From: an uncultured delta proteobacterium
GTDB taxonomy: Bacteria > Desulfobacterota > Deferrimicrobia > Deferrimicrobiales > Deferrimicrobiaceae
Length of the DNA: 64,000 nt
Reading direction: 5' to 3'
Assembly: GCA_963811025.1 (NCBI GenBank)
Contig: CAWEPX010000003.1
Coordinates: 115,190-179,189 of the forward strand
Shown: positions 3,817-33,731 of the stretch, one piece after another
Layout of the letters: each line of letters opens with the position of its first letter
How positions within the stretch are numbered: the first letter of the stretch is position 1
Made by a program: the position numbers and the translations under genes
Notes under the pieces: generated by a model
What the model saw: only the letters and a program-made list of their open reading frames with translations
Told to the model about the DNA's origin: nothing
Databases searched by the model: none

Positions 3817-3904
3817 TGGCGGAGGGAGTAGGATTCGAACCTACGGAAGCTCGCGCTTCAGCGGTTTTCAAGACCGCTGCCTTAAGCCACTCGGCCATCC
3901 CTCC
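3817..3904 (-). tRNA. tRNA-Ser (anticodon UGA), CCA encoded
   Basis: Acceptor GGAGGGA/UCCCUCC, T-arm GUAGGUUCGAAUCCUAC, anticodon loop CUUGAAA. 88 nt. Confidence 0.9.
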
Positions 3905-8121: not shown

Positions 8122-9240
8122 TCTCCGGGGGCGGGATGTCCGATCGATCGTGGTGTTCAAGCAGCGCCACATCGGGGACGTCCTTCTGTCCACGCCGGTC
8201 TTTCGCGCCCTGCGGGTATCGTTTCCGGGCGCGAGCACGGCGGCGGTGGTGAACGAAGGGACGGAGGCGATGCTGTCCGGGAATCCGGACATCGACCGGA
8301 TCGTGGTTTTCCGCCGATCCCGGAGGGACGCGGGAGGGATGGTACGCGGGAAGGAGGAACTGTCCTTCCTTCGGGCGATCCGTGCCTGCCGCCCCGATCT
8401 GGCCGTCCAGCTTACGGAAGGGGACCGGGGGGCGATCCTGTCCTTCCTGTCAGGCGCACGATTTCGTCTGGGAGTGGCTCCCGCGCAAGCCGGGGGATGT
8501 TCGGCAAGGAGCGTCTGTTTACCCATCTGTGCCCGCCGCCGGACCGGTATCGGCACGCGGTGCTCCGGGACCTGGAGATTCTGGCGGAAGCGGGGATCCC
8601 CCCGGCCGATCCCTCCCTGCGGTTTTTCTTCTCCCCCGGGGACCGGGAAAGTCTCGAGCGGAAACTGCACCGGGCGGGAGTTTCCGGGGGTATGCCGTAC
8701 GCGATCATCCATCCTACCTCCCGCTGGAAGTTCAAATGCTGGACGGACGAGGGGATGGCCGGGATCATTGCCCATCTGTCCCGGAAAGGGATCGTCCCGG
8801 TGGTGACTTCGGGGCCCGATCCTGCCGAGGTCGCCCAGGCGGACCGTATCGCAGCCCTATCGGGGGCTGATTGCGCCTCGCTCGCCGGCTTCCTGACTCT
8901 CAAGGAGCTGGGGGCGGCGATCGCATCGGCCCGTCTCTTCGTCGGAGTGGACTCCGCGCCGATGCACCTCGCGGCGGCGGTGGGGACACCGGCGGTCGCC
9001 CTCTTCGGTCCGACGGGGGCCTACAACTGGGCCCCGTGGGAGGGGATCGACTGGGGATACACGGCGGACAGGCCGGCGGGGACGCGGCAGGTGGGACGCC
9101 ACATCGTCGTGCAGAAGGAAGGGGATCTCCTGCGGCGGGGGAAGGACGAAGGCAGGCGCAACCCCGGCATGGAGGAGATCACGTTGGCGGAGGTGGCGGA
9201 GGCGGTCGACCGCGTTCTTCTCACGGGGGCGGGGCGGTAG
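8111..9240 (+). pseudogene. GT9 heptosyltransferase (WaaQ-like) interrupted by one frameshift near the G5 run at 8492-8496
   Basis: The N-terminal GT9 half (8111 frame, ...IVVFKQRHIGDVLLSTPVF...) and C-terminal half (8497 frame, ...VGVDSAPMHLAAAVGTPAVALFGPT) lie in different frames. They join at ccgggggatg. Confidence 0.65.
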
Positions 9241-18297: not shown

Positions 18298-18317
18298 GGA
18301 TCCCGCGGTTTCTCCGC

Positions 18318-20618
18318 CTATACCAGCAAAACCAGAAGTTCCTCCGCCGCCTCCCGGAGCATCTCCTCGTATTTCGCCAGATTCGGCACCTCGCTGCCGT
18401 CGAGGAACCCCACTGCCCGTCCCTGCTGCTTCGCTGTGCCCCCGGAGGCGAGCACACGGTTGGCGCTCCCGCGGAGTCCCCTCCCCTCGTCCGTCAGCAG
18501 GTACCGGATCTTCGAGCCGGCCCGCAGCGTCACCCCCCGTCCGCACAGCTCGCGGGTAACCGCGGCGGCGACCGTGTCGGTGACGTACTGCTCCGGCGCC
18601 CTGGACAGGCGCCTCGCGACCGCCAGCGCCTCCGGCGGGACGCGCCCTTCCCGCAGTTCCGCCGCTGCGGATTCCACGATCTCCCGCAGGCGAGGCAGCA
18701 TGGTGCGCAGCGCGTCCAGGTTCCCGGCCTCGGCCATCTCCGCAAGCAACGCCTGCTGGAGGGACGCGACGAAGGGGGGCGTATCGGAGCGGCGCATCGC
18801 GATCCCGCGCGCCTTGATCCCGCCGCCCGCGAACGCCCCGACGAACCGGTTCGGGACGGCGACCGACGGGTTTCGCTTCGAGGGAAGGAAGGCGAGCCAC
18901 CGGTAGATCCCTTCCAGGGCGATCGGCATCCCCGTTTCGGCGGTGATGGCCTCCGCCAGCCGCCGGTAGTCTGCCTCCTTGGCGCCGGCGCGCACGACCC
19001 ACACGGCGTCGGTCAGGCCGTGCAGGAAGAAAAACCCCTCGCGCTCGGCGACCTCCTTGGCGCAGAGGAGCTTCTCCCGCCCCCAGGCGGTGACCGCCTC
19101 GTGCGCCTCGATCCGGCCGAACCGGGCGTTCCTGTACCCGAGGAACCCGAAGCAGACGACGAGGATCCACTTGAGCGCCGCCTGCCGCTTCCGGAAGAGG
19201 TCGCGCTCCTCGTCGGTGGCGGCCGTCCTCTGGCGTTCCTTGAGAAGCCGCCGTTTTTCGAGGACGGGGGCCAGCACCCCCGGGATGAGACCCCTGCGGC
19301 GGGCGCACGTGTGGAAGCCGATCTCGGGGACGGGGAGGCCCGGGCGGCAGCAGCGGCAGTTGACCGTCTCCGGGGAGATGTTGTACCGGTCCATGAGCGA
19401 CGGGTACATCGAGGCGAAGTCGAGCTCGCCCGTGTTTTCATGCAGGCCGGGCCGGGGCAGATAGGTGAGTCCCCCCTTGTCGGCCGTGACGAGCCCGGCG
19501 CCGGTCTTGAACTCTTCCGGCTCCCGCTTCTTGTAGGGTACGAGGATTCCCTGCGAAAGCGCCGCCGCGACCTGCATCGCCGAGATGGCGGTCCCCGGCG
19601 ACGAGCGGGCCATGCGCTGCAGCGGGATGCCGGAGAGGCGGCAGAGCTCGATCAGGCCCGGGAGGCCGGTCTCCCCGAAGAGGAACGAGTTGCGGGCGTC
19701 CACGTGCCACCGGCCGGAGAGGGTGTGCGGCGCGGCGCGGAAGATCACCCGCCCGTACGAGAAGTAGGACCGCTCGCGGGCGCGCCGGATGCCGTCTCTT
19801 TCCGGATCCTGCCCTTCCTGCGCGGGGCGTGCCCCTTTCCCGGTCGCCCTCCCCGGCGGTCGGGGGGCGCGACCGAGGGGGAGCGGCATGCGGAGCCGGG
19901 AGGCGAGGGCGAGCATCCGCGGCAGGAGGTAGTCGTCTCCGTACTCCGTGACGAGCAGGTCGGGGTCCGCGCGGGCCAGGAGCCGAAGGAACTCCCGGAG
20001 GAAATCCGTTCCGTTCTCCCAGCAGAGGACGTGGGTGGTGCCGTCGGCCGAGAAAACGAGCGGCTGTGCCCTTCCGTGCGCGGGGTGTCCCGTTCCTTCC
20101 GCCCGGAGGAAGGCGCGGGAGAGCGACGGGAGGGGAGAGACGACGTCCCACGGCGAATCGAGGGCGCGGGCGGAGAGAATCCTTCCGTCTTCCGCGCATT
20201 CCACCTCGGCGAAGGAAAACGGGAAGAGTCCGGTGGCGTACGCGAACTGCTCCTCCGGGGCGATGTCGGCGTTGGCGAGCGCCTCCGCCCCGAACGCGCT
20301 TTCCGCCTTCCGGACGGTCGCCCGAAGGAGGAAAGGCGCCGGGACGGCGAACGTCCACGCCGGGACCGTCCTGCCGGAGAAGAACTCGATCCCTTCGCCT
20401 TTCCGGACGTCGCATCTCCAGCGCCCGGCGGCGGCCCGGACCGCGGTCTCCCGCACGCTCCGGCCCGTCACGGCGAAGGAGGGGCGGAACGGGGCGAACA
20501 GGGTCACGGTGTCGCCGGCGGCCGTCCGGAACCAGACCTCCATCCCGTCCCGCGCGGCGAGGAGGTCGAGCACCCACCCGGTCAGGGAAAGGGCAGAGGA
20601 GTTCTTCAAACGTTTCAT
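18318..20618 (-). CDS. polB: family B DNA polymerase (Pol II-like) with variant motif C
   Basis: Motif A LDFASMYPSLM, motif B KWILVVCFGFLGYRNARFG, motif C HGLTDA in place of YGDTDS, and an exo-II-like YGDDYLLP. 766 aa from ATG 20618. The in-frame upstream extension to 20900 is low-complexity and is rejected as coding. Confidence 0.75.
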   Translation of the reverse strand: MKRLKNSSALSLTGWVLDLLAARDGMEVWFRTAAGDTVTLFAPFRPSFAVTGRSVRETAVRAAAGRWRCDVRKGEGIEFFSGRTVPAWTFAVPAPFLLRATVRKAESAFGAEALANADIAPEEQFAYATGLFPFSFAEVECAEDGRILSARALDSPWDVVSPLPSLSRAFLRAEGTGHPAHGRAQPLVFSADGTTHVLCWENGTDFLREFLRLLARADPDLLVTEYGDDYLLPRMLALASRLRMPLPLGRAPRPPGRATGKGARPAQEGQDPERDGIRRARERSYFSYGRVIFRAAPHTLSGRWHVDARNSFLFGETGLPGLIELCRLSGIPLQRMARSSPGTAISAMQVAAALSQGILVPYKKREPEEFKTGAGLVTADKGGLTYLPRPGLHENTGELDFASMYPSLMDRYNISPETVNCRCCRPGLPVPEIGFHTCARRRGLIPGVLAPVLEKRRLLKERQRTAATDEERDLFRKRQAALKWILVVCFGFLGYRNARFGRIEAHEAVTAWGREKLLCAKEVAEREGFFFLHGLTDAVWVVRAGAKEADYRRLAEAITAETGMPIALEGIYRWLAFLPSKRNPSVAVPNRFVGAFAGGGIKARGIAMRRSDTPPFVASLQQALLAEMAEAGNLDALRTMLPRLREIVESAAAELREGRVPPEALAVARRLSRAPEQYVTDTVAAAVTRELCGRGVTLRAGSKIRYLLTDEGRGLRGSANRVLASGGTAKQQGRAVGFLDGSEVPNLAKYEEMLREAAEELLVLLV

Positions 20619-20952
20619 GTACGCCTTCCGTTGCGTTGAGCGCCCGTTGGTGGAGTGCCGGTAACCGGGCCCCTGGCTCGCGCGGGCTTCCCATCGGCTA
20701 CGCTCGCCGCACCAGCAACCTCGTTCCACAGGCCGCCTCGTGGAACCCTCCCGTTGCCTCAGGTCACCGGCTGCCGGCGCAGCGGCCGCAGGAGGAGGGC
20801 CGGAGTGAGGTAAAGCGCAGCCGTGCAGGTTGACCGCACGGCGAGCCACGAACGAAGGCCCCCTCCGAGGCTGCGGAGCCGTCCCCGGATCCCCGGACAA
20901 GGGGCACGGGCACCCGCGGGGGAGCGGACACGCCGGGCGCAGCCTTCCGGGC

Positions 20953-21237
20953 TCACGGGAGGTTCCCCGAGGAGCCGGCGACCCGTCGCTCGAGCTCCTC
21001 CACGCGGCGCAAAAGCTCCCGTACCGCCCGACGCTCCTCGACGAGGATGCTCATCAGGATCGCCTCGAACGGGACGGCGCGTCCCGAGCAGGTGCAGGCG
21101 GCGGTGTGGTACCTTGCCGCGGCGAACAGTTCGTCGAAGAGTTCGCGGTCCTCGCGTCGCAGCGCGCGCCGGAACGCTTTCCACGACTCCTCTTCGCGGT
21201 ACAGCTCCTGGGTGAAGGGGAGCACCGTGCGGCCCAT
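20953..21237 (-). CDS. hypothetical 94-aa helical protein within the lexA-polB block
   Basis: ORF in the same orientation, 8 nt downstream of the ImuA-like gene. It is rich in charged residues and predicted coiled coil. Confidence 0.4.
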   Translation of the reverse strand: MGRTVLPFTQELYREEESWKAFRRALRREDRELFDELFAAARYHTAACTCSGRAVPFEAILMSILVEERRAVRELLRRVEELERRVAGSSGNLP

Positions 21238-21245
21238 ATTATGCT

Positions 21246-21986
21246 TTACCTTTCAGGGGGACACCCTTGCGATACCGTAAATGAAACGCAAGAGTGTCCC
21301 CCGCCAGACGCCCTCTGCCCTTCCCCTTCCCGGCGCAGGAGGAGGCACGGGTCGGCGATCCGGACGAGGTGGCGGAAGAAGCCGGCCCGGTCGCCCCCCC
21401 TGGGAGCACTTTCCTTTCCCCGCGGCATGTTCCCCGAAGCGGCGGGGACCGCTGCGAAGGGGAAAGCATCCGAAGCAGGGGGGTCCGAGCCGACCAGCAC
21501 TACCCGCGTGCCGCCCGCCGCGAGCCGGCGCAGGGACGAAAGACAGTTCCGGAATACCCGGCACGCCTCCGCGTAGGGAACGTCGGCGTCCGCGAACGTC
21601 TCCGGAAGCCCGAAGACGACCGCGAGCCCCGCCCCGGAGCGGTCGAGGGCGGCCTCAAGCCGCCGCGACAGGAGCGCCTCCATCTGGTGGCACGTGAAGG
21701 CGCGGGAGACGAGGATGCGGGAGAGCGCGGCCCTGCCGCTTCCGCCCAGTGCCCTCTCCGCCTTGCCGATCTCGTACGGGTCGAACCGGTTTCCGCCGTC
21801 CACCGCCACCACGGGCTCCCCGGCCACGAGGGGGCGGGCCAGCGCGCGCAGCGCCAGCCGGTGGGCGCCCGTCCCGAAAAAGCCGGCGAGCTTGCCCGGC
21901 GCGGGGCGCAGGCAAAGGGCGGAGGCGCGCTCGATGTCCGTGGCGGCGGGGGAGACGACCGGCGTATGGGGCGCGCGACCGGGCAA
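21246..21986 (-). CDS. ImuA-like (inactivated RecA/SulA-fold) SOS protein
   Basis: VVAVDGGNRFDPYEIGKAERALGGSGRAALSRILVSRAFTCHQMEALLSRRLEAALDRSGAGLAVVFGLP resembles the ImuA core, which lacks a Walker A motif. It starts 17 nt after the lexA stop. Confidence 0.5.
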   Translation of the reverse strand: MPGRAPHTPVVSPAATDIERASALCLRPAPGKLAGFFGTGAHRLALRALARPLVAGEPVVAVDGGNRFDPYEIGKAERALGGSGRAALSRILVSRAFTCHQMEALLSRRLEAALDRSGAGLAVVFGLPETFADADVPYAEACRVFRNCLSSLRRLAAGGTRVVLVGSDPPASDAFPFAAVPAASGNMPRGKESAPRGGDRAGFFRHLVRIADPCLLLRREGEGQRASGGGHSCVSFTVSQGCPPER

Positions 21987-22003
21987 GGCGGACTCCTTCG
22001 TTC

Positions 22004-23455: not shown

Positions 23456-23540
23456 GGGTACCCCCTTTTCGCGGAAAATGCCACGGGCTCCTACGATAGC
23501 CTTGTACTACGGTCTGCCCCGATTGGGATATAATTCTGCC

Positions 23541-24023
23541 ATGCCCGTTTCCCGGATGTCCTGCCCCGCCTGCGGGGCGGATCTTGTCTACGATTCCCAT
23601 GAGGCGATAAAGGACTCGGACGGAAAGGAAGTGTGCCCTTACCGGGGCCGGGGGTACCCGAATCTGCAGGCGGGCCACGACCGGATCTATTTCGGAAAGT
23701 GGAGGAAGATGAACGCCACGCCGGTCGATATCCGGCGGGCCTACCATCAGCTCGAGCGACACTTGAAGGCGATCGGCGAGGTTCTCGAATCGAAGGATCG
23801 GCCCGCGGCGCGGCGCGATCTTGCCAAGGCGATCGAGGCGCTTGCGGCGGGGGATCCCGATGCGGAGTCTTCGGACGCCCTACGGTTCCTGGACCACGCC
23901 CTTTCCTACGCACACACCGCGATCGACGACCTCCTGCACGGGGAGGGCCTGCCCCCCCACGACCCCATGGAATTTGCGAAATGGTACGACGCGGTGGAAG
24001 TGCCGTTCAAGGAAGAGTGGTAA
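23541..24023 (+). CDS. hypothetical protein with N-terminal CxxC zinc-ribbon
   Basis: MPVSRMSCPACGADLVYD...CPY; helical C-terminal half. 160 aa. Confidence 0.45.
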   Translation: MPVSRMSCPACGADLVYDSHEAIKDSDGKEVCPYRGRGYPNLQAGHDRIYFGKWRKMNATPVDIRRAYHQLERHLKAIGEVLESKDRPAARRDLAKAIEALAAGDPDAESSDALRFLDHALSYAHTAIDDLLHGEGLPPHDPMEFAKWYDAVEVPFKEEW

Positions 24024-24051
24024 GCGGCACCGGAACCGGGGGAGGAAACCG

Positions 24052-24630
24052 ATGATAACGCTCGAACGATACCCAAGGGAAATCACCCTCCGCGACGGAG
24101 CGCGGCTCACCCTCCGCCCGATGGTGCGGGAGGACGTGGACCGGCTCTGGGATTTTCTCCGCCGGATCCCCCCGGAGGACAGGATGTACTTCCGGGAGGA
24201 CGTAACCCGGAAGGAAGTGGTCGAACGGTGGGCGGAACATCTCGAATACGATTCGGTGCTTCCCGTTCTTGCCCTCGAGGAGGGACGGGTGGTGGGGGAT
24301 GCGACCCTTCACCGGAACCGGAACGGCTGGAAGCAGCGCGTCGGGACGGTCCGGATCCAGATCGCGCCGGATTTCCGTCACCGGGGCCTCGGGACGGCGA
24401 TGCTCCGGGAGATACGGCACCTGGGGGAGAAGGGGGCCCTGCACTATCTCCTGGCGGAGGTGATCGAGGAGCAACAGGCCGCCATACGGGCCTTCGAAAA
24501 GATGGGGTTCGAGCGCGCGGTCTTCTTACGGAACTTCGTGAACGATCAGGAGGGGAGATTCCACAACCTCGTCGTGTTGCTCTACTCCATGGGGGATTCC
24601 GGACGGGGAACGCTTTCTTTTCCTCCGTGA
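24052..24630 (+). CDS. GNAT family N-acetyltransferase
   Basis: ...VRIQIAPDFRHRGLGTAMLREI... acetyl-CoA-binding motif. 192 aa. Confidence 0.75.
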   Translation: MITLERYPREITLRDGARLTLRPMVREDVDRLWDFLRRIPPEDRMYFREDVTRKEVVERWAEHLEYDSVLPVLALEEGRVVGDATLHRNRNGWKQRVGTVRIQIAPDFRHRGLGTAMLREIRHLGEKGALHYLLAEVIEEQQAAIRAFEKMGFERAVFLRNFVNDQEGRFHNLVVLLYSMGDSGRGTLSFPP

Positions 24631-24711
24631 TGTTTTTCCTGAAGTTTCGCGACCGGTTGGCCGATACCGTCATCAAAGGATGGTAGGGAGTCAGTCAACC
24701 CTAACCGGATC

Positions 24712-24746
24712 GGGGGCCGCAGGGACAACGGCCCCCTATTTTTTTT
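24712..24746 (+). terminator. rho-independent terminator (GGGGGCCG...CGGCCCCC + T8)
   Basis: GC stem followed by tattttttttt, directly after the GNAT gene. Confidence 0.75.
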
Positions 24747-24747
24747 A

Positions 24748-24775
24748 AGAGGCCGCGGGCCTCTTTCGTTTTTTT
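24748..24775 (+). terminator. second tandem terminator hairpin (AGAGGCC gcg GGCCTCT + T-run)
   Basis: Stem plus ttcgttttttt. Confidence 0.65.
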
Positions 24776-24781
24776 GATGGT

Positions 24782-24810
24782 TTGACGGGGGAAACCCGGC
24801 CGAATATCAT
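24782..24810 (+). promoter_or_regulatory. sigma70-like promoter TTGACG-N17-TATCAT upstream of the permease gene
   Basis: Read directly from the sequence; 17-bp spacer. Confidence 0.5.
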
Positions 24811-24847
24811 TAGGCTTTGTCGATTGGGGAGGGTGGCGCTAACCGAT

Positions 24848-26824
24848 ATGGGCATGGCATCCTTTTTTCAGCGCGCCAAGCGGTTCCTCCTGGGAGCGCC
24901 CCGCGACCTGTTCGACCCGAAACTCTTCCACCGGATCTCCCTGATCGCCTTCTTCGCGTGGGTCGGCCTCGGGGCGGACGGGATATCCTCCTCCGCCTAC
25001 GGCCCGGAGGAGGCGTTCCTCGCACTCGGGCGACACACCTCCCTGGCGATTTTCATCGCGATCGCCACGGTCATCACCGTCTTCATCATCTCGGGGAGCT
25101 ACGCCCGGATCATCGAGAAATTCCCCATGGGAGGGGGAGGATATATCCTCGCCGCCAAGCTGCTCGGGGAGAGGGCGGGGGTCGTCTCCGGCTCGGCGCT
25201 GGTCATCGATTACGTCCTGACCGTGACCATCTCCGTGGCGGCAGGAGTCGACGCGGTATTCAGCTTCCTCCCGCTTGGCTGGCAGACCTACAAGTTCTCG
25301 TCCATTGCCTTCGTCATCATCCTGCTCATCGTGCTCAACCTGAGGGGGATCAAGGAGTCGGTAACAATCCTCACCCCCATTTTCCTGGCGTTCATCTTCT
25401 GTCACGTCCCGCTCGTTCTCTATGCGGTCCTGAAACACCTGCCCGAACTTCCCACCGTAACGGCTACCGTGTCGGGGGATATGTCCGATGCCGTGGCGGA
25501 ATTGGGGTTGTTCGGGGTGGGCGTGCTTCTCCTGCGGGCCTATTCGATGGGGGCCGGAACGTACACGGGGATCGAGGCGGTCTGTAACGCCATGGGGACG
25601 CTTCGGGAACCCCGCGTAAAAACAGGGAAGAAGGCTCTCCTGTACATGGCCCTCTCGCTCTCGTTCGTCGCCGGCGGGATCATTCTGGGGTACATGCTAA
25701 ACGGGGTGGAACACATCCCCGGGAAAACGCTCAACGCCTCGCTGATCGAAGGGATCGCAGGCAACATCTGGGAGGGCCGGACCAGAAGCATCATCGTGGC
25801 GTTCGTTCTGGTGACGGAGGCGACCCTCCTGTTCGTCGCCGCCCAGACGGGCTTCCTCGGGGGTCCACAGGTCCTCTCGAGCATGGCGGTCGATTCCTAC
25901 ATGCCCCACCGGTTCGCGCACCTGTCCGACCGGCTGGTGACCAAGTACGGGATATATTTCATGGGGATGATGGCCATCGTGATGTTGTACATCACCGGCG
26001 GCTCCGTGAAGTACCTCGTCATCATGTACTCGATCAACGTGTTCCTCACCTTTACCGTCGACCAGTTCGGGATGTGCGTCCACTGGCTGAGAGAACGCAG
26101 AACGGCGACGGATTGGAAATTCGGGCTCGGAATGAACGGAATCGGGGTTCTCCTGACCGCATCGATCCTGACCGCGACGGTAATGATCAAGTTCCCGGAA
26201 GGCGGATGGTTGACCCTGTTGATCACCGGGACCTTCATCGCGCTTTCTTTCCTGATCCGGAGACATTACCGGAACGTGGAAGGGCACATGCAGAGGCTGG
26301 ACGAACTTCTGACGGGACTCCCCTCACTGACGGTGCCTTCCGAACAGGAGCCGGTTCTCCGGAAGGACGGTCCGACCGCCGCCATCATGGTGTCGGGCTA
26401 CAACGGGATGGGCATGCACGTCTTTTTCTCCGTGGTCCGGTCGTTCCCGGGAATGTTCCGGAACTTCGTCTTTCTCTCCGCCGGTGTGATCGACTCCCGC
26501 ACGTTCAAGGGGGTCGAGGAGATCGAAAATCTCGGAGAGGATCTGAAACGCCAGCTCGGGCAATACGTGGAGTTCGCCAAGGGGCACGGCTACTACGCCG
26601 AATTGCGTTATGAAGTCGGAACGGACGTCATAACGGTGGTCGACCGGCTGGCGCCGAAAATCGCAAATGATTTTCCCAACATCACGTTCTTCGCCGGCCA
26701 GCTTGTCTTCGAGGAGGAGACCTTCATCACGAGGGTGCTACACAACCAGACGGCGTTTCTCGCGCAGAGAAAACTCGTCTTCCACGGGCTGCCGATGATC
26801 ATCATGCCCGTCCGGGTGCTGTAG
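24848..26824 (+). CDS. APC-superfamily permease with ~200-aa C-terminal cytoplasmic domain (KimA-like / amino-acid permease)
   Basis: 12-TM core (GISSSAYGPEE... typical APC N-terminus) plus a soluble tail. Start MGMASFF.... Confidence 0.65.
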   Translation: MGMASFFQRAKRFLLGAPRDLFDPKLFHRISLIAFFAWVGLGADGISSSAYGPEEAFLALGRHTSLAIFIAIATVITVFIISGSYARIIEKFPMGGGGYILAAKLLGERAGVVSGSALVIDYVLTVTISVAAGVDAVFSFLPLGWQTYKFSSIAFVIILLIVLNLRGIKESVTILTPIFLAFIFCHVPLVLYAVLKHLPELPTVTATVSGDMSDAVAELGLFGVGVLLLRAYSMGAGTYTGIEAVCNAMGTLREPRVKTGKKALLYMALSLSFVAGGIILGYMLNGVEHIPGKTLNASLIEGIAGNIWEGRTRSIIVAFVLVTEATLLFVAAQTGFLGGPQVLSSMAVDSYMPHRFAHLSDRLVTKYGIYFMGMMAIVMLYITGGSVKYLVIMYSINVFLTFTVDQFGMCVHWLRERRTATDWKFGLGMNGIGVLLTASILTATVMIKFPEGGWLTLLITGTFIALSFLIRRHYRNVEGHMQRLDELLTGLPSLTVPSEQEPVLRKDGPTAAIMVSGYNGMGMHVFFSVVRSFPGMFRNFVFLSAGVIDSRTFKGVEEIENLGEDLKRQLGQYVEFAKGHGYYAELRYEVGTDVITVVDRLAPKIANDFPNITFFAGQLVFEEETFITRVLHNQTAFLAQRKLVFHGLPMIIMPVRVL

Positions 26825-26879
26825 GGGGAAGCCGGTTGGATTCCCCCGGGAAATGGGGTAGAAGGAGAGTCGGGACCGC

Positions 26880-27428
26880 ATGAAGGGCCGGGAGGTCGTC
26901 TACGATATGGGGGGAAGGACAAAAGGTACGCTCCTCCTCGTGCTGGTTCTGTCCCTGTCGCTGTGCCCCGTCCCCCCGGTGAACGGGGAAGGGCTCTCCG
27001 GCTCCCCGGCCGGTCCTCACTCCCATTTCATGAAATCCTCGAGCTGCCCGCGGTGCCACGTCTATCGCGGGTCCAAGCGGGAGAAGGGCCTGTTTCTCCC
27101 GGACACGGACACATTCTGCCTGGATTGCCACTCGCTCGAGGGACTGGGAATAACCCATCCGATCGCCATCCGGCCCGGGGACGGGCGCCGCCGATTGAGG
27201 GTGCCGACAGACCTGCCGCTGGACAACGAGGGGAAGATGTTCTGCCTCACCTGCCACAATGCCCATGGGCCGTTCCTTTCTTCGATCCGGGCGTTCGCTT
27301 CCCAGAAGGCGGCGAACCCGGGCGCACCGGCAGGCTCGAAACCCGCCTACCGGACCTACTTCGTGAGGCGGTCCGATCCCGTTCGGGGGTTCTCACCGTT
27401 GTGCGAGGAGTGCCACGGGAAACGATGA
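26880..27428 (+). CDS. tetraheme c-type cytochrome, secreted
   Basis: Signal peptide and four CxxCH motifs (CPRCH, CLDCH, CLTCH, CEECH). 182 aa. Confidence 0.75.
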   Translation: MKGREVVYDMGGRTKGTLLLVLVLSLSLCPVPPVNGEGLSGSPAGPHSHFMKSSSCPRCHVYRGSKREKGLFLPDTDTFCLDCHSLEGLGITHPIAIRPGDGRRRLRVPTDLPLDNEGKMFCLTCHNAHGPFLSSIRAFASQKAANPGAPAGSKPAYRTYFVRRSDPVRGFSPLCEECHGKR

Positions 27429-27979
27429 GGCGAAATCCCCATTTCAAATACCGGCGACGGACCAAGCTGGTCAACCCGAAGTTCCAGGGAGGGGCCGCGA
27501 TTCTCATCATCGCCGTCGTCCTCGCCGCCGGGGCGCTGGTCGCGGTTTTGCTGTTCCGTGACCTCCGGCAGGCCCTTGGGAACGCCTCTGCCAGCGGCCA
27601 TTTCGGGTTCCCGGCCCCCTACCGGATCGTAAGTGACATCCTGGTCCGGCAGCTTCTTGTCCTGTTCGCCCTTGTCTTCGCGGGAGGGTCTCTCGCGTTC
27701 CTGTGGTACGTGCGCAGGATACGGCTGGGGATATCCCGACTGACAGAGGTTTTCGAGGCTGCGGGGAAGGGGGACCTCTCTTCCCCGTCGAATGTACGGA
27801 GTTTCAAGGAACTCGTCGATTTCGGGACGGAAATCGATGCGGTCCGATCCTACACCCTTGACCTGATCGAGGAAATCCGGGGAGAGGCGAAAGCGATTCG
27901 GACGTCCGACCTGTCGCAGGTGGAGTTTGAAAAGCGATGGGATGCGCTCAAGGAGAAGATCGGGAGGATCGTACCGTGA
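27425..27979 (+). CDS. two-TM membrane protein with HAMP domain and no output domain
   Basis: Two TM helices followed by a HAMP-like segment (ISRLTEVFEAAGKGDLSSPSNVRSFKELVDFGTEIDAV). The ATG overlaps the upstream stop (ATGA). Confidence 0.55.
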   Translation: MRRNPHFKYRRRTKLVNPKFQGGAAILIIAVVLAAGALVAVLLFRDLRQALGNASASGHFGFPAPYRIVSDILVRQLLVLFALVFAGGSLAFLWYVRRIRLGISRLTEVFEAAGKGDLSSPSNVRSFKELVDFGTEIDAVRSYTLDLIEEIRGEAKAIRTSDLSQVEFEKRWDALKEKIGRIVP

Positions 27980-28533
27980 GCCCGTGGAGAGGGGGCAGGG
28001 GGGATCCTGCCGCGGGCCATTCGTTCTGGGGACGGTTCCTTCTTTTCTGGCTCGCCTCTTCCGGCGTGGGAACGCTCCTCCTGTTCCTTTTCCATTACCT
28101 GTACCTCACCCCCCCCTTCCCGGACGGGTATGCTGCGGTGTATTATGCCCTTCGCCACCTTGCGGATACCATGCTCCCCGTTGTCGCTCTCTCCCTCCTG
28201 GCCTACGTTCTCTTCCTGAGCGGAGCCGCGGCCTGGCTCTGCATCAACCTGCTCCACAAGGTCGCCGGGCCGATTTTCGGACTGGAAAAGGTTCTTGGGA
28301 CCTTTCTCAACGGGGCGCCGATCAGGCCGTTCTTCATGCGCCACGGCGACCAGGTGCCGGACCTCATCTCCGCGTTCAACGGGTTCGTGAGTCGGTTGCG
28401 GGAGGACCGGCGCAAGTGGTTGGGGGTGATGGAGAGCGCGGATCGCCTCGGCCTGCAGGACCGGGAGACATGCCGCGCCGGGATGGAGAAGGCCCTGGCC
28501 GAACTGGAAACTCTGCTCTCCCCATACCGTTGA
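27976..28533 (+). CDS. hypothetical polytopic membrane protein
   Basis: GTG start overlapping the upstream stop (GTGA). Four predicted TM helices plus a C-terminal helical region. Confidence 0.5.
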   Translation: MSPWRGGRGDPAAGHSFWGRFLLFWLASSGVGTLLLFLFHYLYLTPPFPDGYAAVYYALRHLADTMLPVVALSLLAYVLFLSGAAAWLCINLLHKVAGPIFGLEKVLGTFLNGAPIRPFFMRHGDQVPDLISAFNGFVSRLREDRRKWLGVMESADRLGLQDRETCRAGMEKALAELETLLSPYR

Positions 28534-28615
28534 CCTTGCCCCCCGGGCGGTTTTTTGCCAATATACGGGAAACGGGAAAATGAATGTGCGGGATACTCTC
28601 GAGGGAGGTCGACGT

Positions 28616-29020
28616 ATGAAAGCGATCCGGAAGGCGGGCTGGTTTTTCCTGTTGGCTTTGATGATGGCGTGCTGGATGGGAGTGCTCGGGTCGATCCGGG
28701 GGGAGGCACTGGCAGGCGTCATTGCGTCCCACGGGACCGATGGCGTGTCGGTCCGGGGAGCGGACATCGGCAAGCTCCAGGCCTTCCTGGAACAGAAGAT
28801 CGTCCTCCAGAAACTCACGGACTACGGAGTGTCCGCGGATGAGGCGATTGCCAAGATCCGTTCCATGAGCGACGCGGATCTGCACCGCCTTGCCTCCCTG
28901 TCCGACAGGGCAGCCGAAGGGGCGGACAGCGCCCTGGGTTTTCTGATCGGCGTGGCGGTCCTGATCATCCTCATCGTCGTGATCGTCAAGCTGATGAACA
29001 AGGAGATCGTCATACGCTGA
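28616..29020 (+). CDS. small secreted/C-terminally anchored protein (PA2779-family-like)
   Basis: N-terminal signal peptide and C-terminal TM (GFLIGVAVLIILIVVIV). Sits immediately upstream of the C39-like peptidase lipoprotein. Confidence 0.45.
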   Translation: MKAIRKAGWFFLLALMMACWMGVLGSIRGEALAGVIASHGTDGVSVRGADIGKLQAFLEQKIVLQKLTDYGVSADEAIAKIRSMSDADLHRLASLSDRAAEGADSALGFLIGVAVLIILIVVIVKLMNKEIVIR

Positions 29021-29022
29021 AA

Positions 29023-29619
29023 GTGATGCGAAGAGGGGTGATGGGCGCCGCCCTGCTCGCGGGCGGCGCCTTTTTCATTTTGGGGGGATGCGCGCAGGAC
29101 GTCGGGATCCGGGGGGGGAACCCTGCCATCCCGGAGGCGGAGGCAGGTATACGGCACGCCGCAGCCGCAACCGTCATCCCGCATGTTCCCTTTCTGCCCC
29201 AGGAGGAGGACACCTGCGGCCCCTCCTCGCTTGCGATGCTCCTGCGCTTTTACGGGATGGATGTCAGCACCGGGGAGATCATGCGGGAGACGAGGACCGC
29301 GGGGCTCCGCGGGACGCTCATCACCGACCTGGCGGCGGCTGCCCGGCGTCGCGGATTCGAGGCGGAGGTCGTGGATCTCGACCTGGAGCGGTTGCGGGAA
29401 AGGATAGCGGAGGGCATCCCCGTGATCCTGCTCGTGGACCTTGGGGCATGGGTCTACAGCCGCCCGCACTACCTGCTCGCATTCGGCGTGACTCCCGAAG
29501 GGGTGGTTGCCCACTCGGGAAGGGAGGAGGGAAAGGTGATCCCTTATTCCTCCCTCGAGACACAGTGGGCGAAGATGGGGCGGTTGGCGATCATCGTGCG
29601 AAGGAGGGTGTCGAAGTGA
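29023..29619 (+). CDS. C39-like cysteine peptidase domain lipoprotein (PA2778-family-like)
   Basis: LGGC lipobox. EEDTCGPSSLAMLLRFYG papain/C39-type catalytic Cys context. Confidence 0.55.
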   Translation: MMRRGVMGAALLAGGAFFILGGCAQDVGIRGGNPAIPEAEAGIRHAAAATVIPHVPFLPQEEDTCGPSSLAMLLRFYGMDVSTGEIMRETRTAGLRGTLITDLAAAARRRGFEAEVVDLDLERLRERIAEGIPVILLVDLGAWVYSRPHYLLAFGVTPEGVVAHSGREEGKVIPYSSLETQWAKMGRLAIIVRRRVSK

Positions 29620-30278
29620 CCGGCAGGAGAGGGAGACACCGCCGCTTTCGGCGGGAGATTCTGGCGCTTGCGATCCCCGGCCTTCTTCTGGCGGCGGTTT
29701 TCGCGATGACGGGGTGCGGGAGGATGCCTCACGTCATCGTGCTGGAGGATCCCTTGACGGCGGGTGAGCACCTCGAGCTTGGCGTGCTGTACGAGCGCCA
29801 GGGGAAGTTCGATCTGGCGATCCGGGAATACGAGCGGGCCCTCCGGAAGGACAAGGAGTGTTTCCAGGCCCGGGTGAACCTGGGAAACGTCTGGTTGGCG
29901 AAGAAAGAGTACGGGAAGGCGAGGGGGGAGTACGGGGAAGCGCTTGCCATGCGGCCCGGCGACCCCGAGGCGACCAACAACCTCGCCTGGGCGGCGATCT
30001 TTTCCGGCGAGCGCCGGGAGGAGGCGGCGGAGCGGATGGAGGCGGTCCTCTCCCGGAAAGCGAACCGAACCGTGACGCTGCTCGACACGCTCGGGGTGCT
30101 CCGGATGCGCATGGGCCAGCCGGGCCGCGCGGACGAGGCCTTCGCGGAAGCGGAACGGCTTTGCCTCGAGGCGGGCGGGTCCGGGTGTCCGGACGAGGTT
30201 CTGCGGGAGGTCCGGGATCACCGGGCGGAAGCTTGCGGGGGCTGCTTACCCTCCGCGGCGCCCCCTTTGGTAAAATAG
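29616..30278 (+). CDS. TPR-repeat lipoprotein
   Basis: GTG start overlapping the upstream stop. MTGCG lipobox. TPR helices (LGVLYERQGKFDLAIREYERAL...). Confidence 0.55.
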   Translation: MTGRRGRHRRFRREILALAIPGLLLAAVFAMTGCGRMPHVIVLEDPLTAGEHLELGVLYERQGKFDLAIREYERALRKDKECFQARVNLGNVWLAKKEYGKARGEYGEALAMRPGDPEATNNLAWAAIFSGERREEAAERMEAVLSRKANRTVTLLDTLGVLRMRMGQPGRADEAFAEAERLCLEAGGSGCPDEVLREVRDHRAEACGGCLPSAAPPLVK

Positions 30279-30282
30279 GCAC

Positions 30283-31209
30283 ATGTATCCTCCAATCCAC
30301 CCGGATCTTCGTTTCCACAATTACGCGTCGTATCTGCGGAGGCGACTCGGCGGGGCCGCGGTGCGAATCAGCGTCGATGGGGGATTCACCTGCCCGAACC
30401 GGGACGGAACCCGGGGCGAGGGCGGCTGTTTCTACTGCAACAGCGACTCCTTCACCAACGGGATCAAGTTTCCGGGTCTTCCTGTCGAAGAGCAGGTCCG
30501 GCGGACGATCCTTTCCCCGGGAAGGCACCGGAATGCCCGGCACATCCTCGTTTATTTCCAGCGGTTCAGCAACAGCTATGCTCCCCCGGACGAACTGGAC
30601 CGGATATACCGGGCCGCCTTTTGCCATCCCGACGTGGTAGGAATCGTCGTGGGTACCCGACCCGACTGCCTCGGCCCGGAGGTGCTCGACGTGCTGGAGG
30701 GGATCGGCCGAACCGGGTATGTCTTCGTCGAGATCGGGCTTCAGTCGAAATCCGACGCCGTTCTCGCGGGGATCAACCGCGGGCACACCGTCGACGATTT
30801 TGTGACTGCCGTTGCGGCGGTCCGGGAACGGAAGATCGACACCGGTGTCCACCTGATCTACGGGCTCCCCGGAGAGACGCGGGAGAATTTCGTGGAAACG
30901 GCTGGCTTCCTCTCTGATCTCGACGTGCAGGGGGTGAAGCTGCATCACTTCCACGTTGTGGCAGGGAGCGCCCTTGCGGAAGAGTGGAGGAAAGGAACGG
31001 TGAGGGTGCCGGAATACGGGGAATACGTATCGGTATGCGCGGATTTCCTCGAACGGCTCTCTGCGGAAGTCGCCGTGCTCCGGCTGATCGGATCGGCGCC
31101 CGCCGGGACGCTGATCGCCCCCCTGTGGGAGAAAGGCGGCAGGGAGATGGCGCAGGATGTGGCGGCCGAACTGCAAAGAAGAGGTACCTGGCAGGGAGCG
31201 CTCCGATAG
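30283..31209 (+). CDS. radical SAM protein, TIGR01212 (YhcC-like) family
   Basis: VDGGFTCPNRDG...CFYC cysteine cluster and a TIM-barrel-like remainder. 308 aa. Confidence 0.7.
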   Translation: MYPPIHPDLRFHNYASYLRRRLGGAAVRISVDGGFTCPNRDGTRGEGGCFYCNSDSFTNGIKFPGLPVEEQVRRTILSPGRHRNARHILVYFQRFSNSYAPPDELDRIYRAAFCHPDVVGIVVGTRPDCLGPEVLDVLEGIGRTGYVFVEIGLQSKSDAVLAGINRGHTVDDFVTAVAAVRERKIDTGVHLIYGLPGETRENFVETAGFLSDLDVQGVKLHHFHVVAGSALAEEWRKGTVRVPEYGEYVSVCADFLERLSAEVAVLRLIGSAPAGTLIAPLWEKGGREMAQDVAAELQRRGTWQGALR

Positions 31210-31232
31210 AGAGAAGCGGAAAAGGAGAGGAT

Positions 31233-31733
31233 ATGGGTGACGCGGAGAGGGAGTACCTTCCTCACTCGTCCCGGTGCTTCATTTGCGGGGACGAGAACGG
31301 GTGCGGTGTGCGTACCCGTTTCTTTGTCGAAGGGGATGCCGTGCGGACGCGGGTGACCCTGCCCCGCCATGTCAACGGGTACAAGGACGTCGCTCATGGA
31401 GGCGTCATCGCGGCTCTCCTGGACGAGTCGATGGGGTGGGCGGCCACGGTGTTCGGGAGCCGGCATCCGATGTATCTCACGGGCGAACTGACCGTGAAGT
31501 ACCTTTTCCCCGTTCCGGTCGGGGAGGAGATCGAAATCGTGAGCCGACTCGAGGAGGATTCGGGGCGTATCGCCTACAGCACCGGGGAACTCGTTTGCGG
31601 AGGAAAGGTCAGCGTGAGGGCGAAGGGAAAGTTCCTCCCGATGAGCAAGGAAGCGACCGGGCGCATCCTGTCCTACCTGAAGTTCGACCTGTGCAGGAAG
31701 TACCGGACGCTGTTCGACTACGCGAAAGAGTAA
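31233..31733 (+). CDS. PaaI/hotdog-fold thioesterase
   Basis: HGGVIAALLDESMG hotdog motif. 166 aa. Confidence 0.7.
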   Translation: MGDAEREYLPHSSRCFICGDENGCGVRTRFFVEGDAVRTRVTLPRHVNGYKDVAHGGVIAALLDESMGWAATVFGSRHPMYLTGELTVKYLFPVPVGEEIEIVSRLEEDSGRIAYSTGELVCGGKVSVRAKGKFLPMSKEATGRILSYLKFDLCRKYRTLFDYAKE

Positions 31734-31791
31734 CGGGTGGAAAAGGGGTATCGGGGCATCACCGCCCCGCCGACCCGGTCCGGCGGGGAGT

Positions 31792-32886
31792 TTATTTGAC
31801 GCGAATCCGGACCGTATAGGTAACGGGATCGGGCGAGAGGCCCGGCGGGATGTCAAGCTTCCCGGGGATCCCCTCCGGGGGGATCGATCCCAGTTTCCCC
31901 AGTTCTTCGAGGAATACGTCGGCAAACACCGCCGGGATGAGGACCCGGACGACATTGGAGACGACCACCGGCTTCTCCATGCGGCTTGTCGCGAAACGCA
32001 CCCTGTCCCGGCGGACCGCTCCCCCCAGGCGCAGGGCAACGGCGGCGATACGGTCCTCAACGCCGGGCCGGGCATCCCGATCGACTTCGATCGTCACTTC
32101 TCTACCGAAGGGCGCTTGCCGTAAGAGGCCCGGCGGTGCGGCGAAAACGTGCAACCCCTCGGTTTCCCCGGGCGGGGATTCCCGGAGGAAGGCCGGTTCG
32201 GTCGTCCCGCTTTCGGTACTCACCCGTGCGAGGCCCGCCGGAAGTTCCGACCTTGCAAACATGCCCGGTCTTTCGGGCATCGGTTCGGGAACTGCTTCCC
32301 GTTCCTTCCCGGTCGCTCCGCTCCCGGTACGCACCTGTTCTGCGGGGGCCGACGGAAGTTCCGGTCTTGCATGGACGGTCGGTTTTTCGGGTATCGGCGT
32401 TACGACAGCCTTCCGTCCCTCTTCAGGGGTCGGTTCGGCCTTGGCCCCACGGGTTGTGTCAGCGTCCGGGCGCTTCGCAACCGTTTCGGTTCTCGCCACC
32501 CGTACCCCGCTCTCGGCGGATGCGGGAGGAGACGGGACAGGCGTTGTCGTCGGCATCTCTTTCTGGATTCCGTAGACAAGGAGAAAGACCAGCACCACGG
32601 CAGCGGCTTCGAGCGGGATCTTGATGTGCGCGGGCAGGAACACCTTCTTCCACAAGGGTACCGCCGTCTTCTCCGCGATGCGCAGTTTGACCCCCTTGAG
32701 GAGTTCCGGAGGGGCCGCCTCGGCGGGGAGGCTTCGCAGGAGGGAGAGCGTCTCCCGGAGTGCTCTCTCCTCCTCGGCGCACCGGGAGCATTGCCGGATG
32801 TGGCCGGCGATCCCCTCCTGCTCCCTGTCCGAAAGGTCCCCGTCCAGGTAAGAGGAAAGCATATCCTGTGTCCTGGTGCACTCCAT
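31792..32886 (-). CDS. anti-sigma factor (zf-HC2 N-terminus, one TM, Pro/Glu-rich repetitive periplasmic domain)
   Basis: MECTRTQDMLSSYLDGDLS...HIRQCSRCAEE zinc-finger anti-sigma N-terminus. Located directly downstream of the ECF sigma gene. Confidence 0.7.
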   Translation of the reverse strand: MECTRTQDMLSSYLDGDLSDREQEGIAGHIRQCSRCAEEERALRETLSLLRSLPAEAAPPELLKGVKLRIAEKTAVPLWKKVFLPAHIKIPLEAAAVVLVFLLVYGIQKEMPTTTPVPSPPASAESGVRVARTETVAKRPDADTTRGAKAEPTPEEGRKAVVTPIPEKPTVHARPELPSAPAEQVRTGSGATGKEREAVPEPMPERPGMFARSELPAGLARVSTESGTTEPAFLRESPPGETEGLHVFAAPPGLLRQAPFGREVTIEVDRDARPGVEDRIAAVALRLGGAVRRDRVRFATSRMEKPVVVSNVVRVLIPAVFADVFLEELGKLGSIPPEGIPGKLDIPPGLSPDPVTYTVRIRVK

Positions 32887-32898
32887 CCTTGCCATCCT

Positions 32899-33525
32899 TT
32901 ACACGACCGGCGCCAGCATCTTCCGCAGCGCCATCCTCGCTCTGTGAAGCCTTGATTTCACCGTCCCCAGGGGAATGCCGACCGCCTCGGAAAGTTCCTC
33001 GTAGCTTAACCCCTCGACATCCGACAGCAGTACGAGCATCCGGGAATCTTCGTCGAGATTCGCAATCGCCGCTTCCAGGATCTTCCTGGTCTCCCGGGAT
33101 TCCACCATGCGGTCGGGGCGATCCTCCTCCCTGCCGGGAGGCTGGAAGGGTGAATCGCCGTCCCCTTGCGGTTCAATCGACATAACCTCCCTTGCGGCCC
33201 GGGTCGCACGCTGGCGAATGCGGTTCAGGGACCGGTTGGCCGCGATGCGGAGCAGCCACGTGGAGAGCGACGCCTCCCCGCGAAACCCCGCCAGGTTCCG
33301 GTAGGCCGAGAGGAACACCTCCTGCGCGACGTCCAAGGCATCCTCCCGATCCGACAACATCCGGAGGCAGAAGGCGTAAACCCGGTCCTGGTGGGTCCTG
33401 ACGATGGCGTCAAACGCCCCCGGTTTCCCCTCCCGGAATGCCTCCACCAAGAGGTCCACGGGTCTGTTTTCCGCCTCGCTCTTATTATTTTTCAAGCGGT
33501 TAGGCGGAGGAGCGTCAGAATCCAC
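32899..33525 (-). CDS. ECF (sigma-70 family, RpoE-like) RNA polymerase sigma factor
   Basis: Region 2 (VAQEVFLSAYRNLAGFRGEASLSTWLLRIAANRSLN) and region 4 (LSYEELSEAVGIPLGTVKSRLHRAR). Confidence 0.85.
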   Translation of the reverse strand: MDSDAPPPNRLKNNKSEAENRPVDLLVEAFREGKPGAFDAIVRTHQDRVYAFCLRMLSDREDALDVAQEVFLSAYRNLAGFRGEASLSTWLLRIAANRSLNRIRQRATRAAREVMSIEPQGDGDSPFQPPGREEDRPDRMVESRETRKILEAAIANLDEDSRMLVLLSDVEGLSYEELSEAVGIPLGTVKSRLHRARMALRKMLAPVV

Positions 33526-33731
33526 GGCGATCCCTTACCCTCCATATTGACAGTCGGTAGTCGGCTTCGGTTCCGGTGCCATGCGTCCCCGGGGGAGAAA
33601 CTTCCCTCGCCCGTTCTGTCCATTGTACTGCAGCAATGGTTGCGGTTGGGGAAGGTTTCTTGTATTTTAATAGTGAACCTACGGAACTTTGTACGCGTTT
33701 GCAATATCTCAACAAACAAGGGGGTCTGGGG

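Follow-up and report, generated by a model that had tools for sequence, protein, structure and literature searches.

Two neighbouring three-gene modules, a split variant of the PA2779/PA2778 pair and a lineage-restricted cytochrome trio, in an envelope gene cluster of Candidatus Deferrimicrobiaceae

Introduction

Do six envelope genes that follow each other almost without gaps on one strand form a single system, or are they neighbours for other reasons? This question is raised by positions 26880-30278 of a 64,000-nucleotide stretch of DNA (hereafter the window; contig CAWEPX010000003.1, positions 115,190 to 179,189 of the forward strand, assembly GCA_963811025.1) from an uncultured delta proteobacterium of the Deferrimicrobiaceae, which encodes, in this order, a tetraheme cytochrome c (g1), two HAMP-like membrane proteins (g2 and g3), a PA2779-like protein (g4), a C39-type peptidase lipoprotein (g5) and a tetratricopeptide repeat (TPR) lipoprotein (g6). 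A preliminary description of this DNA proposed that the whole set could be a single redox-sensing module controlling a periplasmic peptidase. We consider, with a probability of about 0.7, that the set falls into two independent modules of three genes each, which are neighbours only through the local synteny of a single lineage, Candidatus Deferrimicrobiaceae / MBNT15: g1-g3, or module A, a putative sensor, and g4-g6, or module B, a split PA2779/PA2778 pair for which we propose a proteolytic cleavage. This lineage, the MBNT15 or Deferrimicrobia group, is predicted to respire metals, iron among them, with a large number of multiheme cytochromes (PMC9386147).

The protein PA2779 is described merely as hypothetical (PMC3985676) and is listed with the Pseudomonas stutzeri genes that were screened to obtain strong constitutive promoters (PMC10155442). 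Our literature search on PA2779, PA2778, DUF6627, or sensors combining HAMP proteins with a tetraheme cytochrome retrieved no functional study, and the earlier remark that this combination of genes is not recognisable as a described system was upheld.

Structure of the six genes

Gene structures were taken from the open reading frame (ORF) listing and from a direct reading of positions 26700-30400, and are as follows:

26880-27428, plus strand: g1, secreted tetraheme c-type cytochrome; alternative ATG at 26907 behind GGGAGG
27425-27979, plus strand: g2, 184 amino acids (aa), two transmembrane (TM) helices and a HAMP-like segment; ATGA overlap with g1 at 27425-27428
27976-28533, plus strand: g3, 185 aa, two TM helices and a HAMP-like helix-loop-helix; GTGA overlap with g2 at 27976-27979
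28616-29020, plus strand: g4, small envelope protein of the PA2779 family (DUF6627); 82-nucleotide (nt) gap after g3
29023-29619, plus strand: g5, C39-type cysteine peptidase lipoprotein, 198 aa; start 2 nt past the g4 stop
29616-30278, plus strand: g6, TPR lipoprotein; GTGA overlap with g5 at 29616-29619

All six plus-strand genes are present in the ORF listing at the coordinates first reported for them, with the overlaps at 27425, 27976 and 29616, and the space of about 80 nt reported before the PA2779-like gene measures 82 nt with ATG 28616 as the start. This start, behind a ribosome-binding site GGGAGG at 28603-28608, is most likely the correct one, rather than 28580. For g3 the GTG start is favoured, nearly all full-length homologues being 185 aa long. 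In compact genomes, overlaps between stop and start codons abound, and by themselves they do not exceed chance. The profile searches suggested in the preliminary description, made here with Pfam and TIGRFAM/NCBIfam, assigned g1, g4, g5 and g6 to families.

Gene neighbourhoods among relatives

The neighbourhood was compared over 160 loci, 80 from metagenomes seeded by alignment to g3 and 80 from species-representative genomes seeded by alignment to PA2779, which were scored as six-frame ORFs with custom hidden Markov models for the six genes and five flanking genes. The PA2779 seed was a 10-sequence subset, and the scan covers the relatives that share the C-terminal KL[ML][DN]K[EQ]... tail and misses fused-type families such as that of Pseudomonas; the fused-type PA2778 families were covered through a plasmid collection instead. 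Module A is restricted to one lineage and is inherited without exception as a complete trio: g1, g2 and g3 stand together in all of the 160 loci that have room for them, and the g2 and g3 homologues with a named source come from metagenome-assembled genomes (MAGs) labelled Candidatus Deferrimicrobiaceae, Thermodesulfobacteriota or 'Deltaproteobacteria'.

The gene following this trio varies. At the 44 informative loci seeded with g3 it is g4 in 20, a KimA-type permease in 11 and an unrelated gene in 13, and at the g4-seeded loci of the lineage g4 is preceded by g3 in 9 cases, by the permease in 22 and by another gene in 8. Outside the lineage (Thermocrinis, Sulfurihydrogenibium, Hydrogenobacter, Eisenbacteria, Desulfuromonas, Desulfobacteraceae and Udaeobacter), a C39 gene lies downstream of g4 in 26 out of 26 informative loci and is followed in most by a TPR gene; the upstream gene is unrelated, and neither the cytochrome, g2, g3 nor the permease was ever found near g4 in these 26 loci. 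PA2779-C39, with or without TPR, is present without a nearby cytochrome or HAMP gene in at least five other phyla (including Aquificota, Eisenbacteria and Verrucomicrobiota) and on two betaproteobacterial replicons. On the latter, Azoarcus pAZKH and Eleftheria terrae, an annotated pair of PA2779 and fused PA2778 (AZKH_RS25060/25055 in Azoarcus sp. KH32C) stands among unrelated genes, with no cytochrome or HAMP gene within 5 kb.

The order found in the window, permease-trio-g4-C39-TPR, recurs in a locus that is 99% identical to it (L010). Other members of the lineage have trio-permease-g4-C39-TPR, permease-trio-permease-g4 with its following genes, or trio-permease-trio-g4 with or without the C39 and TPR genes (L003-L006, L051 and L104, the first four lacking both), and many Deferrimicrobium genomes have one or two permease genes before g4 and lack the trio, and often the C39 and TPR genes as well. 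Conversely, the trio is found without PA2779, C39 and TPR genes at L063 and L080-L084, between serC and a convergent pair of histidine kinase and sigma-54 regulator; these loci are all syntenic and therefore count as a single observation. The trio of L080 is identical in sequence to proteins of the MAG GWA2_65_63, which carries its cluster of permease, g4, C39 and TPR genes on a different scaffold (L127). With its two modules on separate scaffolds, this MAG is a related genome in which they are unlinked.

The modules are independent because a permease separates them or they are unlinked in relatives, because each of them is found without the other and because g4 has its own promoter-like motif (see below). 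The proposal of one redox-sensing module controlling a peptidase fails on these counts, the genes not being conserved together (the trio is followed by g4 in 20 of 44 loci, and 26 of 26 loci of other phyla lack it). The co-occurrence comparison had been suggested in the preliminary description, which named beforehand as refuting the very outcome obtained over the 160 loci, a lack of joint conservation of the genes. Adjacency within the lineage says little on function because the whole neighbourhood is syntenic, unrelated genes included, with GNAT, permease and so on, up to YtqA, 4HBT, FMN reductase and anti-sigma/sigma genes.

A split variant of the PA2779/PA2778 pair

The product of g4 belongs to the PA2779 family, with 70.6 bits against the model NF033919 (cutoff 40) and 35.6 bits against DUF6627 (PF20332, cutoff 27). 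Its N-terminal signal or anchor is followed by some 70 aa of periplasmic helical sequence, by a C-terminal TM helix (residues 106-124) and by a basic tail, KLMNKEIVIR; this layout of signal or anchor, short helical domain and C-terminal TM helix is common to the aligned members of the family (30 and 109 sequences). Directly before the C-terminal helix lies the site G102-A103-D104 (nt 28919-28927), and across 109 family representatives (50% identity) G occupies position 102 in 90% and position 103 in 84%, the others having A, T or S at 103, and D occupies position 104 in 70%; the Azoarcus PA2779 protein has AGGN at the matching position. Further upstream, g4 carries an LSDxELHxLA motif (positions 84-93). 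The hydrophobic ends of g4 are unusually conserved, with 80% mean column identity. An AlphaFold2 (AF2) model of g4, of low confidence (predicted local distance difference test, pLDDT, 50), has helices at 3-35 and 107-132 and was used solely for the helix break at residues 102-106. The family is large, with more than 1000 g4 homologues in an indexed search and 991 clusters at 50% identity in an exhaustive one.

The second gene of the module encodes a C39 peptidase lipoprotein and the third a TPR lipoprotein, as had been proposed: g5 matches Peptidase_C39 (PF03412) with 43.7 bits (cutoff 22) and Peptidase_C39_2 with 38.1 bits (cutoff 24), g6 has TPR repeats (TPR_2, 55 bits), and both start with lipobox-like signals, ILGGC (Cys23) in g5 and AMTGC in g6. 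Gln60 (in VPFxxQ), Cys65 (in Cys-Gly) and His149 of g5 are invariant in 18 C39 proteins or loci from several phyla, and the ComA peptidase domain (3k8u) aligns with g5 across the catalytic Cys (E=3e-4). The protein is not the N-terminal domain of an ABC exporter, and no ABC transporter gene is adjacent. Against the PA2778 model NF033920, g5 covers positions 2-144 of 255 with 85.7 bits and g6 covers positions 166-248 with 22.9 bits. Similarly, the annotated, fused PA2778 protein of Azoarcus sp. KH32C (248 aa) resembles g5 in its first half (E=2e-11) and g6 in its TPR half (E=4e-4). As g5 and g6 thus cover the two halves of the fused model, together they are a split form of PA2778. They are two genes with their own lipoprotein signals, rather than a fused polypeptide of C39 and TPR parts, and neither reaches the 150-bit cutoff of NF033920; C39 and TPR are separate ORFs in every scanned locus that has both. 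The gene order and the PA2779/PA2778-type pairing recognized in the preliminary description are confirmed, with g4 above the NF033919 cutoff and the C39 gene 2 nt downstream, and on its sequence module B is a split three-gene version of a widespread pair.

We propose that the periplasmic C39 lipoprotein g5, helped by its TPR partner g6, would cut g4 after the conserved Gly-Gly, here Gly-Ala. The cut, just outside the C-terminal helix, would free the periplasmic part of about 70 residues from the membrane. C39 peptidases cleave after GG, GA or GS, and it is because of this specificity and of the conserved G-[GA]-D site in the g4 family that such a cleavage is suggested.

Several variants of module B were observed in addition. 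Orphan g4 genes, which directly follow a single or double permease gene and lack C39 and TPR genes in their vicinity, are present in many Deferrimicrobium genomes (L099, L113-L117, L119, L122, L130, L132, L136 and L140, g4 at about 8001-8399), and the MAG MFD02199.bin.2.95 has two of them (L124 and L132). At four loci (L051 14319-15309, L104 8001-8990, L111 2884-3812 and L118 3927-4904), the PA2779-like gene is tandemly duplicated before a single C39-TPR pair, and the second copy lacks the conserved promoter-like motif. The Aquificaceae loci (L148-L153, L156, L157, L161, L164, L166 and L168) have PA2779-like and C39 genes, and a TPR gene could not be detected there; in the related Hydrogenothermaceae, the loci comprise all three genes.

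Transcription signals in front of module B

The space between g3 and g4 contains the following element:

28536-28564, plus strand: promoter-like element of g4, sigma-70-like, TTGCCC-N17-CAATAT with a spacer ending in TGC; ends 51 nt before ATG 28616

Among relatives, the g3-g4 spacer ranges from 29 to 268 nt and the motif is always kept, 45-59 nt before the g4 start. Its consensus is TTG[ACT]C[CG], a stretch of some 17 nt with TG[CG] at its end, and [CG]AA[GT]AT, and it was present in 47 of the 50 unique upstream regions tested by regular expression, with g3 or the permease upstream alike. The Deferrimicrobium version, TTGACC-N17-CACAAT, is at the same place, and the Aquificota loci have TGATATAAT. 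We read this conserved motif as a predicted extended -10 promoter of g4 itself, and the T-run that was scored as a weak terminator as the spacer of this promoter. A weak hairpin with a T-run at 28536-28550 indeed overlaps the element; the generic promoter scan missed the element and listed the hairpin only, and terminator-like sites are not enriched over shuffled sequences (14 vs 8.9 +/- 3.5), our statements on hairpins and terminators covering 23500-33600. The transcription unit starting at g4 likely ends at a hairpin at 31765-31788. Promoter-like elements also precede g1 in most contexts and are less uniform. Just past the -10-like hexamer, at 28565-28590 of the window, the stretch ACGGGAAACGG(G/A)AA is conserved in many relatives and could be an operator or an element of the 5' untranslated region of the PA2779-like gene.

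The cytochrome trio

The claim of a periplasmic multiheme cytochrome is well founded, g1 having four CxxCH motifs (C56, C80, C122 and C175; nt 27045-27059, 27118-27132, 27244-27258 and 27403-27417), a match to Paired_CXXCH_1 of Pfam (31.4 bits, cutoff 20.6) and an N-terminal hydrophobic segment in keeping with the secretion of a multiheme cytochrome c. Exactly four CxxCH motifs are present in 58 of 58 unique homologues, which share only three further invariant His (H47, H93 and H129), so that one of the four hemes is left without a conserved distal His inside the cytochrome. There are weak matches to the DmsE, GSU2203 and NrfH (decaheme/NrfH) families. The protein is not of the NapC/NirT/NrfH family, with no Cytochrom_NNT match in Pfam and 14.3 bits against NrfH TIGR03153 (cutoff 134), and a PDB sequence search with g1 gave nothing meaningful.

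The preliminary description saw in g2 a TM-HAMP protein without output domain and in g3 a polytopic partner with four TM segments. For g2, two TM helices and no output domain are seen, and the HAMP assignment (PF00672) stays below threshold, with 13.6 bits for a Pfam gathering threshold of 25 and no other significant match; as a reference, the canonical HAMP of the histidine kinase near the L080 trio scores 59 bits. The best PDB match of the g2 profile is the TM2-HAMP region of Tsr (E=0.033). Sub-threshold HAMP matches were obtained for 11 of 20 g2 relatives (best E 0.0073) and 4 of 18 g3 relatives, and HAMP is the commonest Pfam match for both. Of 74 sequences, at least 95% have His59, which lies in the periplasmic loop of g2 (about 30 residues). 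As for g3, it does not have four TM segments: its AF2 model (pLDDT 69; helices 12-44, 51-60, 62-111, 127-158 and 163-184, with a loop at 112-126) has two hydrophobic helices and then a helix-loop-helix, the long hydrophobic helix 12-44 being followed by a short loop helix and by helix 62-111, which runs out of the membrane, with the motif H-K-[IV]-A-G-P-[IL]-[FY] at the membrane exit. The profile search gave no Pfam match at all for g3, a PDB search with the g3 profile gave only a spurious match to protein A repeats, and Foldseek of the model against the PDB gave nothing at E <= 0.001, as expected for a helical monomer. All homologues of g2 (n=79) and g3 (n=63) are short and stand-alone, and the cytoplasmic C-terminal helices are conserved in both proteins, neither of which has an output domain. 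We make no claim that g2 and g3 are paralogues (no BLASTP alignment, hhalign probability 3%), and we rejected a b-type heme or quinol-oxidase role, as their TM helices have no conserved His.

On these features the trio may plausibly be a heme-based periplasmic sensor of redox state or of a ligand, whose signal would cross the membrane via the putative pair of g2 and g3 HAMP-like proteins to a partner protein. The redox-sensing part of the earlier proposal thus stands as reasonable for a candidate sensor made of the cytochrome and the HAMP-like proteins, and its control of a peptidase is unsupported. At L080 (10587-13863; also L063, L082 and L084), the trio lies after serC and is convergent with genes for a small secreted protein, a sigma-54-dependent response regulator and a HAMP histidine kinase.

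Alternative explanations

Some observations weigh against two independent modules or against the roles proposed for them. The two modules coexist within genomes of this lineage, so that they may be functionally linked without being adjacent, and transcription may read through from g3 into g4, the hairpin at 28536-28550 being weak. The PA2779 'GG' site is off the canonical distance from the LSxxELxxI-like motif, with a spacing unlike that of classical double-glycine leaders, the alignment of 18 C39 proteins shows no conserved Asp for the classical triad, confidence in the AF2 model of g4 is low, and g4 is kept at many Deferrimicrobium loci that have no C39 gene in the vicinity, which would be odd if g4 were merely a substrate. 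In module A, the HAMP assignments of g2 and g3 are below the Pfam threshold and their mutual homology is not demonstrable (hhalign 3%).

The most inclusive alternative is that all six genes are one system in which the cytochrome/HAMP trio senses redox and controls the C39 peptidase as LapD controls LapG. The adjacency of the six genes, similarly ordered and oriented in the window and many of its close relatives, the coexistence of both modules in the genomes of the lineage and the need of HAMP-like proteins without output domain for some partner speak for it. However, a permease between the two modules or their location at separate places in many relatives, PA2779-C39-TPR without the trio in the 26 loci of other phyla and on both betaproteobacterial replicons, the trio without the peptidase module at L063 and L080-L084, and the promoter-like element of g4 all oppose it, and the synteny extends to the unrelated GNAT, YtqA and 4HBT genes, which leaves little weight to adjacency; we regard it as very improbable. 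If the trio needs a partner, its most frequent neighbour is the KimA-type permease, which in relatives stands upstream, downstream or on both sides, and the trio might work with this transporter, K+ uptake being coupled to the periplasmic redox state through contacts of the HAMP-like proteins with its cytoplasmic domain. Such a role would fit the KimA homologue directly upstream of the trio in the window, its place right behind the trio in other clades, in which its start overlaps or adjoins the g3 stop, and the tandem forms permease-trio-permease and trio-permease-trio, but no permease is within 4-10 kb of the trio at L063 and L080-L084, at many Deferrimicrobium loci the permease is present, in one or two copies, and the trio is not, and all arrangements can be derived from one tandem duplication in one lineage and are not independent. 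We hold this coupling to be unlikely, and take the frequent but non-obligate adjacency to the transporter as a lead and not as a finding. A more detailed version, in which the trio would be a new three-protein heme sensor, with one heme ligated, or left open, by His59 of g2, relay through a g2/g3 HAMP-like heterodimer and output by protein contact, most likely to the KimA-type transporter, is a long shot and hardly more probable than the six-gene system.

Two other alternatives concern the function of each module. The main rival to a sensor is an electron-transfer or purely structural role of the trio, with g2 and g3 merely tethering or organising the tetraheme cytochrome at the inner membrane of an iron reducer, which we consider possible. 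The metal respiration predicted for the lineage with its many multiheme cytochromes (PMC9386147), the weak g1 matches to DmsE, GSU2203 and NrfH families and the absence of an output domain agree with it. On the contrary, the TM helices of g2 and g3 have neither a conserved His for b-type heme nor features of a quinone site, g1 has no NapC/NirT family match, and the succession of TM2, helix-loop-helix and conserved cytoplasmic tail is the architecture of signalling proteins. Regarding module B, the PA2779-like protein may be no substrate at all, but an anchor, inhibitor or adaptor for a C39/TPR pair acting on another envelope protein, or the C39-like domain may be a non-proteolytic binding module. 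This is somewhat more doubtful than the electron-transfer role of the trio, despite the common orphan g4 genes of Deferrimicrobium, the 80% mean column identity of both hydrophobic ends, suggestive of specific membrane contacts, and the non-conserved Asp of the triad, as the active-site Gln, Cys and His are invariant across phyla, the conserved GG(A)D motif lies exposed beside the membrane and PA2779 and C39 genes are strictly adjacent outside the lineage (26/26).

Genomic context of the six genes

The features flanking the six genes are the following:

24747-24765: terminator-like hairpin in front of the permease gene, comparable to that at 31765-31788
24848-26824, plus strand: gene for a KimA-type K+ transporter of the APC family, 658 aa; 55 nt upstream of g1
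30283-31209, plus strand: MnmL/YtqA radical-SAM tRNA-modification gene (TIGR01212, 288 bits, cutoff 180); 4 nt past g6
31765-31788, plus strand: terminator-like hairpin, 8 G-C pairs then a T-rich tail, after the 4HBT thioesterase gene

Dense packing runs past 30278, with YtqA/MnmL at 30283 and then the thioesterase gene. The boundary of the six-gene set is arbitrary, since the tight spacing continues into YtqA/MnmL and strong terminator-like hairpins are found within 23500-33600 only at 24747-24765 and 31765-31788. In many relatives, a MoaA-like radical-SAM gene (Radical_SAM and Mob_synth_C), absent from the window, is inserted between the TPR gene and ytqA (for example L001 12551-13525, L003 9874-10845 and L007 9656-10630). 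Genes for an ECF sigma factor and a zf-HC2 anti-sigma factor follow on the minus strand of the window (31792-33525), and their synteny is kept across the lineage.

The flanking permease is a homologue of KimA (PDB 6s3k, E=3.2e-60) and matches AA_permease_2 of Pfam. Tandem forms with the trio were observed at L001 4874-10601, L003 3784-9106 and L051 8962-14223, and in several clades the permease gene starts at or within the g3 stop (L003 5422/5425; L046, L057, L061 and L065).

Elsewhere in the window, a cluster of three tRNAs is located at 3476-3904 on the minus strand, and a Rfam scan of the window gave no match except these three. The G+C content of 18000-22000 is unusually high (0.71 vs about 0.62). 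A repeat search over 24000-32000 revealed no boundaries of mobile elements and no meaningful repeats, and PADLOC gave no defence-system match.

Comparison with known systems

Module B is closest to the PA2779/PA2778 pair (NF033919 and NF033920, e.g., PA2779-PA2778 of P. aeruginosa), with which it shares order, orientation and a small anchored protein with a C-terminal TM helix followed by C39 and TPR parts; it differs in having the peptidase and the TPR protein as two genes, each with a lipoprotein signal, g5 alone scoring 85.7 bits for a cutoff of 150. The C39 domains of ABC exporters (ComA, PCAT1, LahT) resemble g5 in their papain-like fold and their Gln/Cys/His active site, and the Gly-Gly/Ala site of g4 is of the kind that these exporter peptidases cut. 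However, g5 is a stand-alone periplasmic lipoprotein, neither cytoplasmic nor fused to a transporter, its Asp is not conserved, and the presumed site in g4 lies near the C-terminus of a membrane-tethered protein and not at the end of an N-terminal leader. Another stand-alone periplasmic C39-like peptidase of an envelope operon is FapD, of the Pseudomonas functional-amyloid (Fap) system; the likeness is at the level of the C39 fold, and neither Fap amyloid subunits nor the FapF channel are found here.

In the LapD-LapG system, a HAMP-containing inner-membrane receptor controls a periplasmic cysteine protease, which is the logic of the earlier proposal, with a HAMP protein gating a periplasmic cysteine peptidase. 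The differences are that g2 and g3 have no GGDEF or EAL domains, that g5 is of the C39 and not of the LapG type, and that the HAMP-like and peptidase genes co-occur in one lineage only. As to module A, Af1503 is a HAMP-only receptor of two TM helices without output domain, a layout with which those of g2 and g3 may be compared, and the Geobacter chemoreceptors GSU0582 and GSU0935 have a periplasmic c-type heme as the sensor of a transmembrane signalling protein. Both cases differ from the trio, in which the tetraheme cytochrome is a separate protein and the HAMP-like proteins are two distinct ones with sub-threshold HAMP.

Significance

Altogether, the locus is a variant of a known, uncharacterised pair beside a lineage-restricted, uncharacterised trio, and dissolving the six-gene 'system' keeps a false new system out of catalogues. 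The PA2779/PA2778 family, named after the P. aeruginosa pair, comprises about 1000 clusters at 50% identity. The GGD site by the membrane, the invariant Gln, Cys and His and the recurrent split form provide it with a concrete hypothesis, that of a dedicated periplasmic C39 peptidase that would release a tethered protein. The cytochrome and the two HAMP-like proteins are an uncharacterised, always intact module of a candidate lineage of metal-respiring bacteria and, if their proposed role is true, would represent a way to sense the periplasmic redox state without a conventional output domain.

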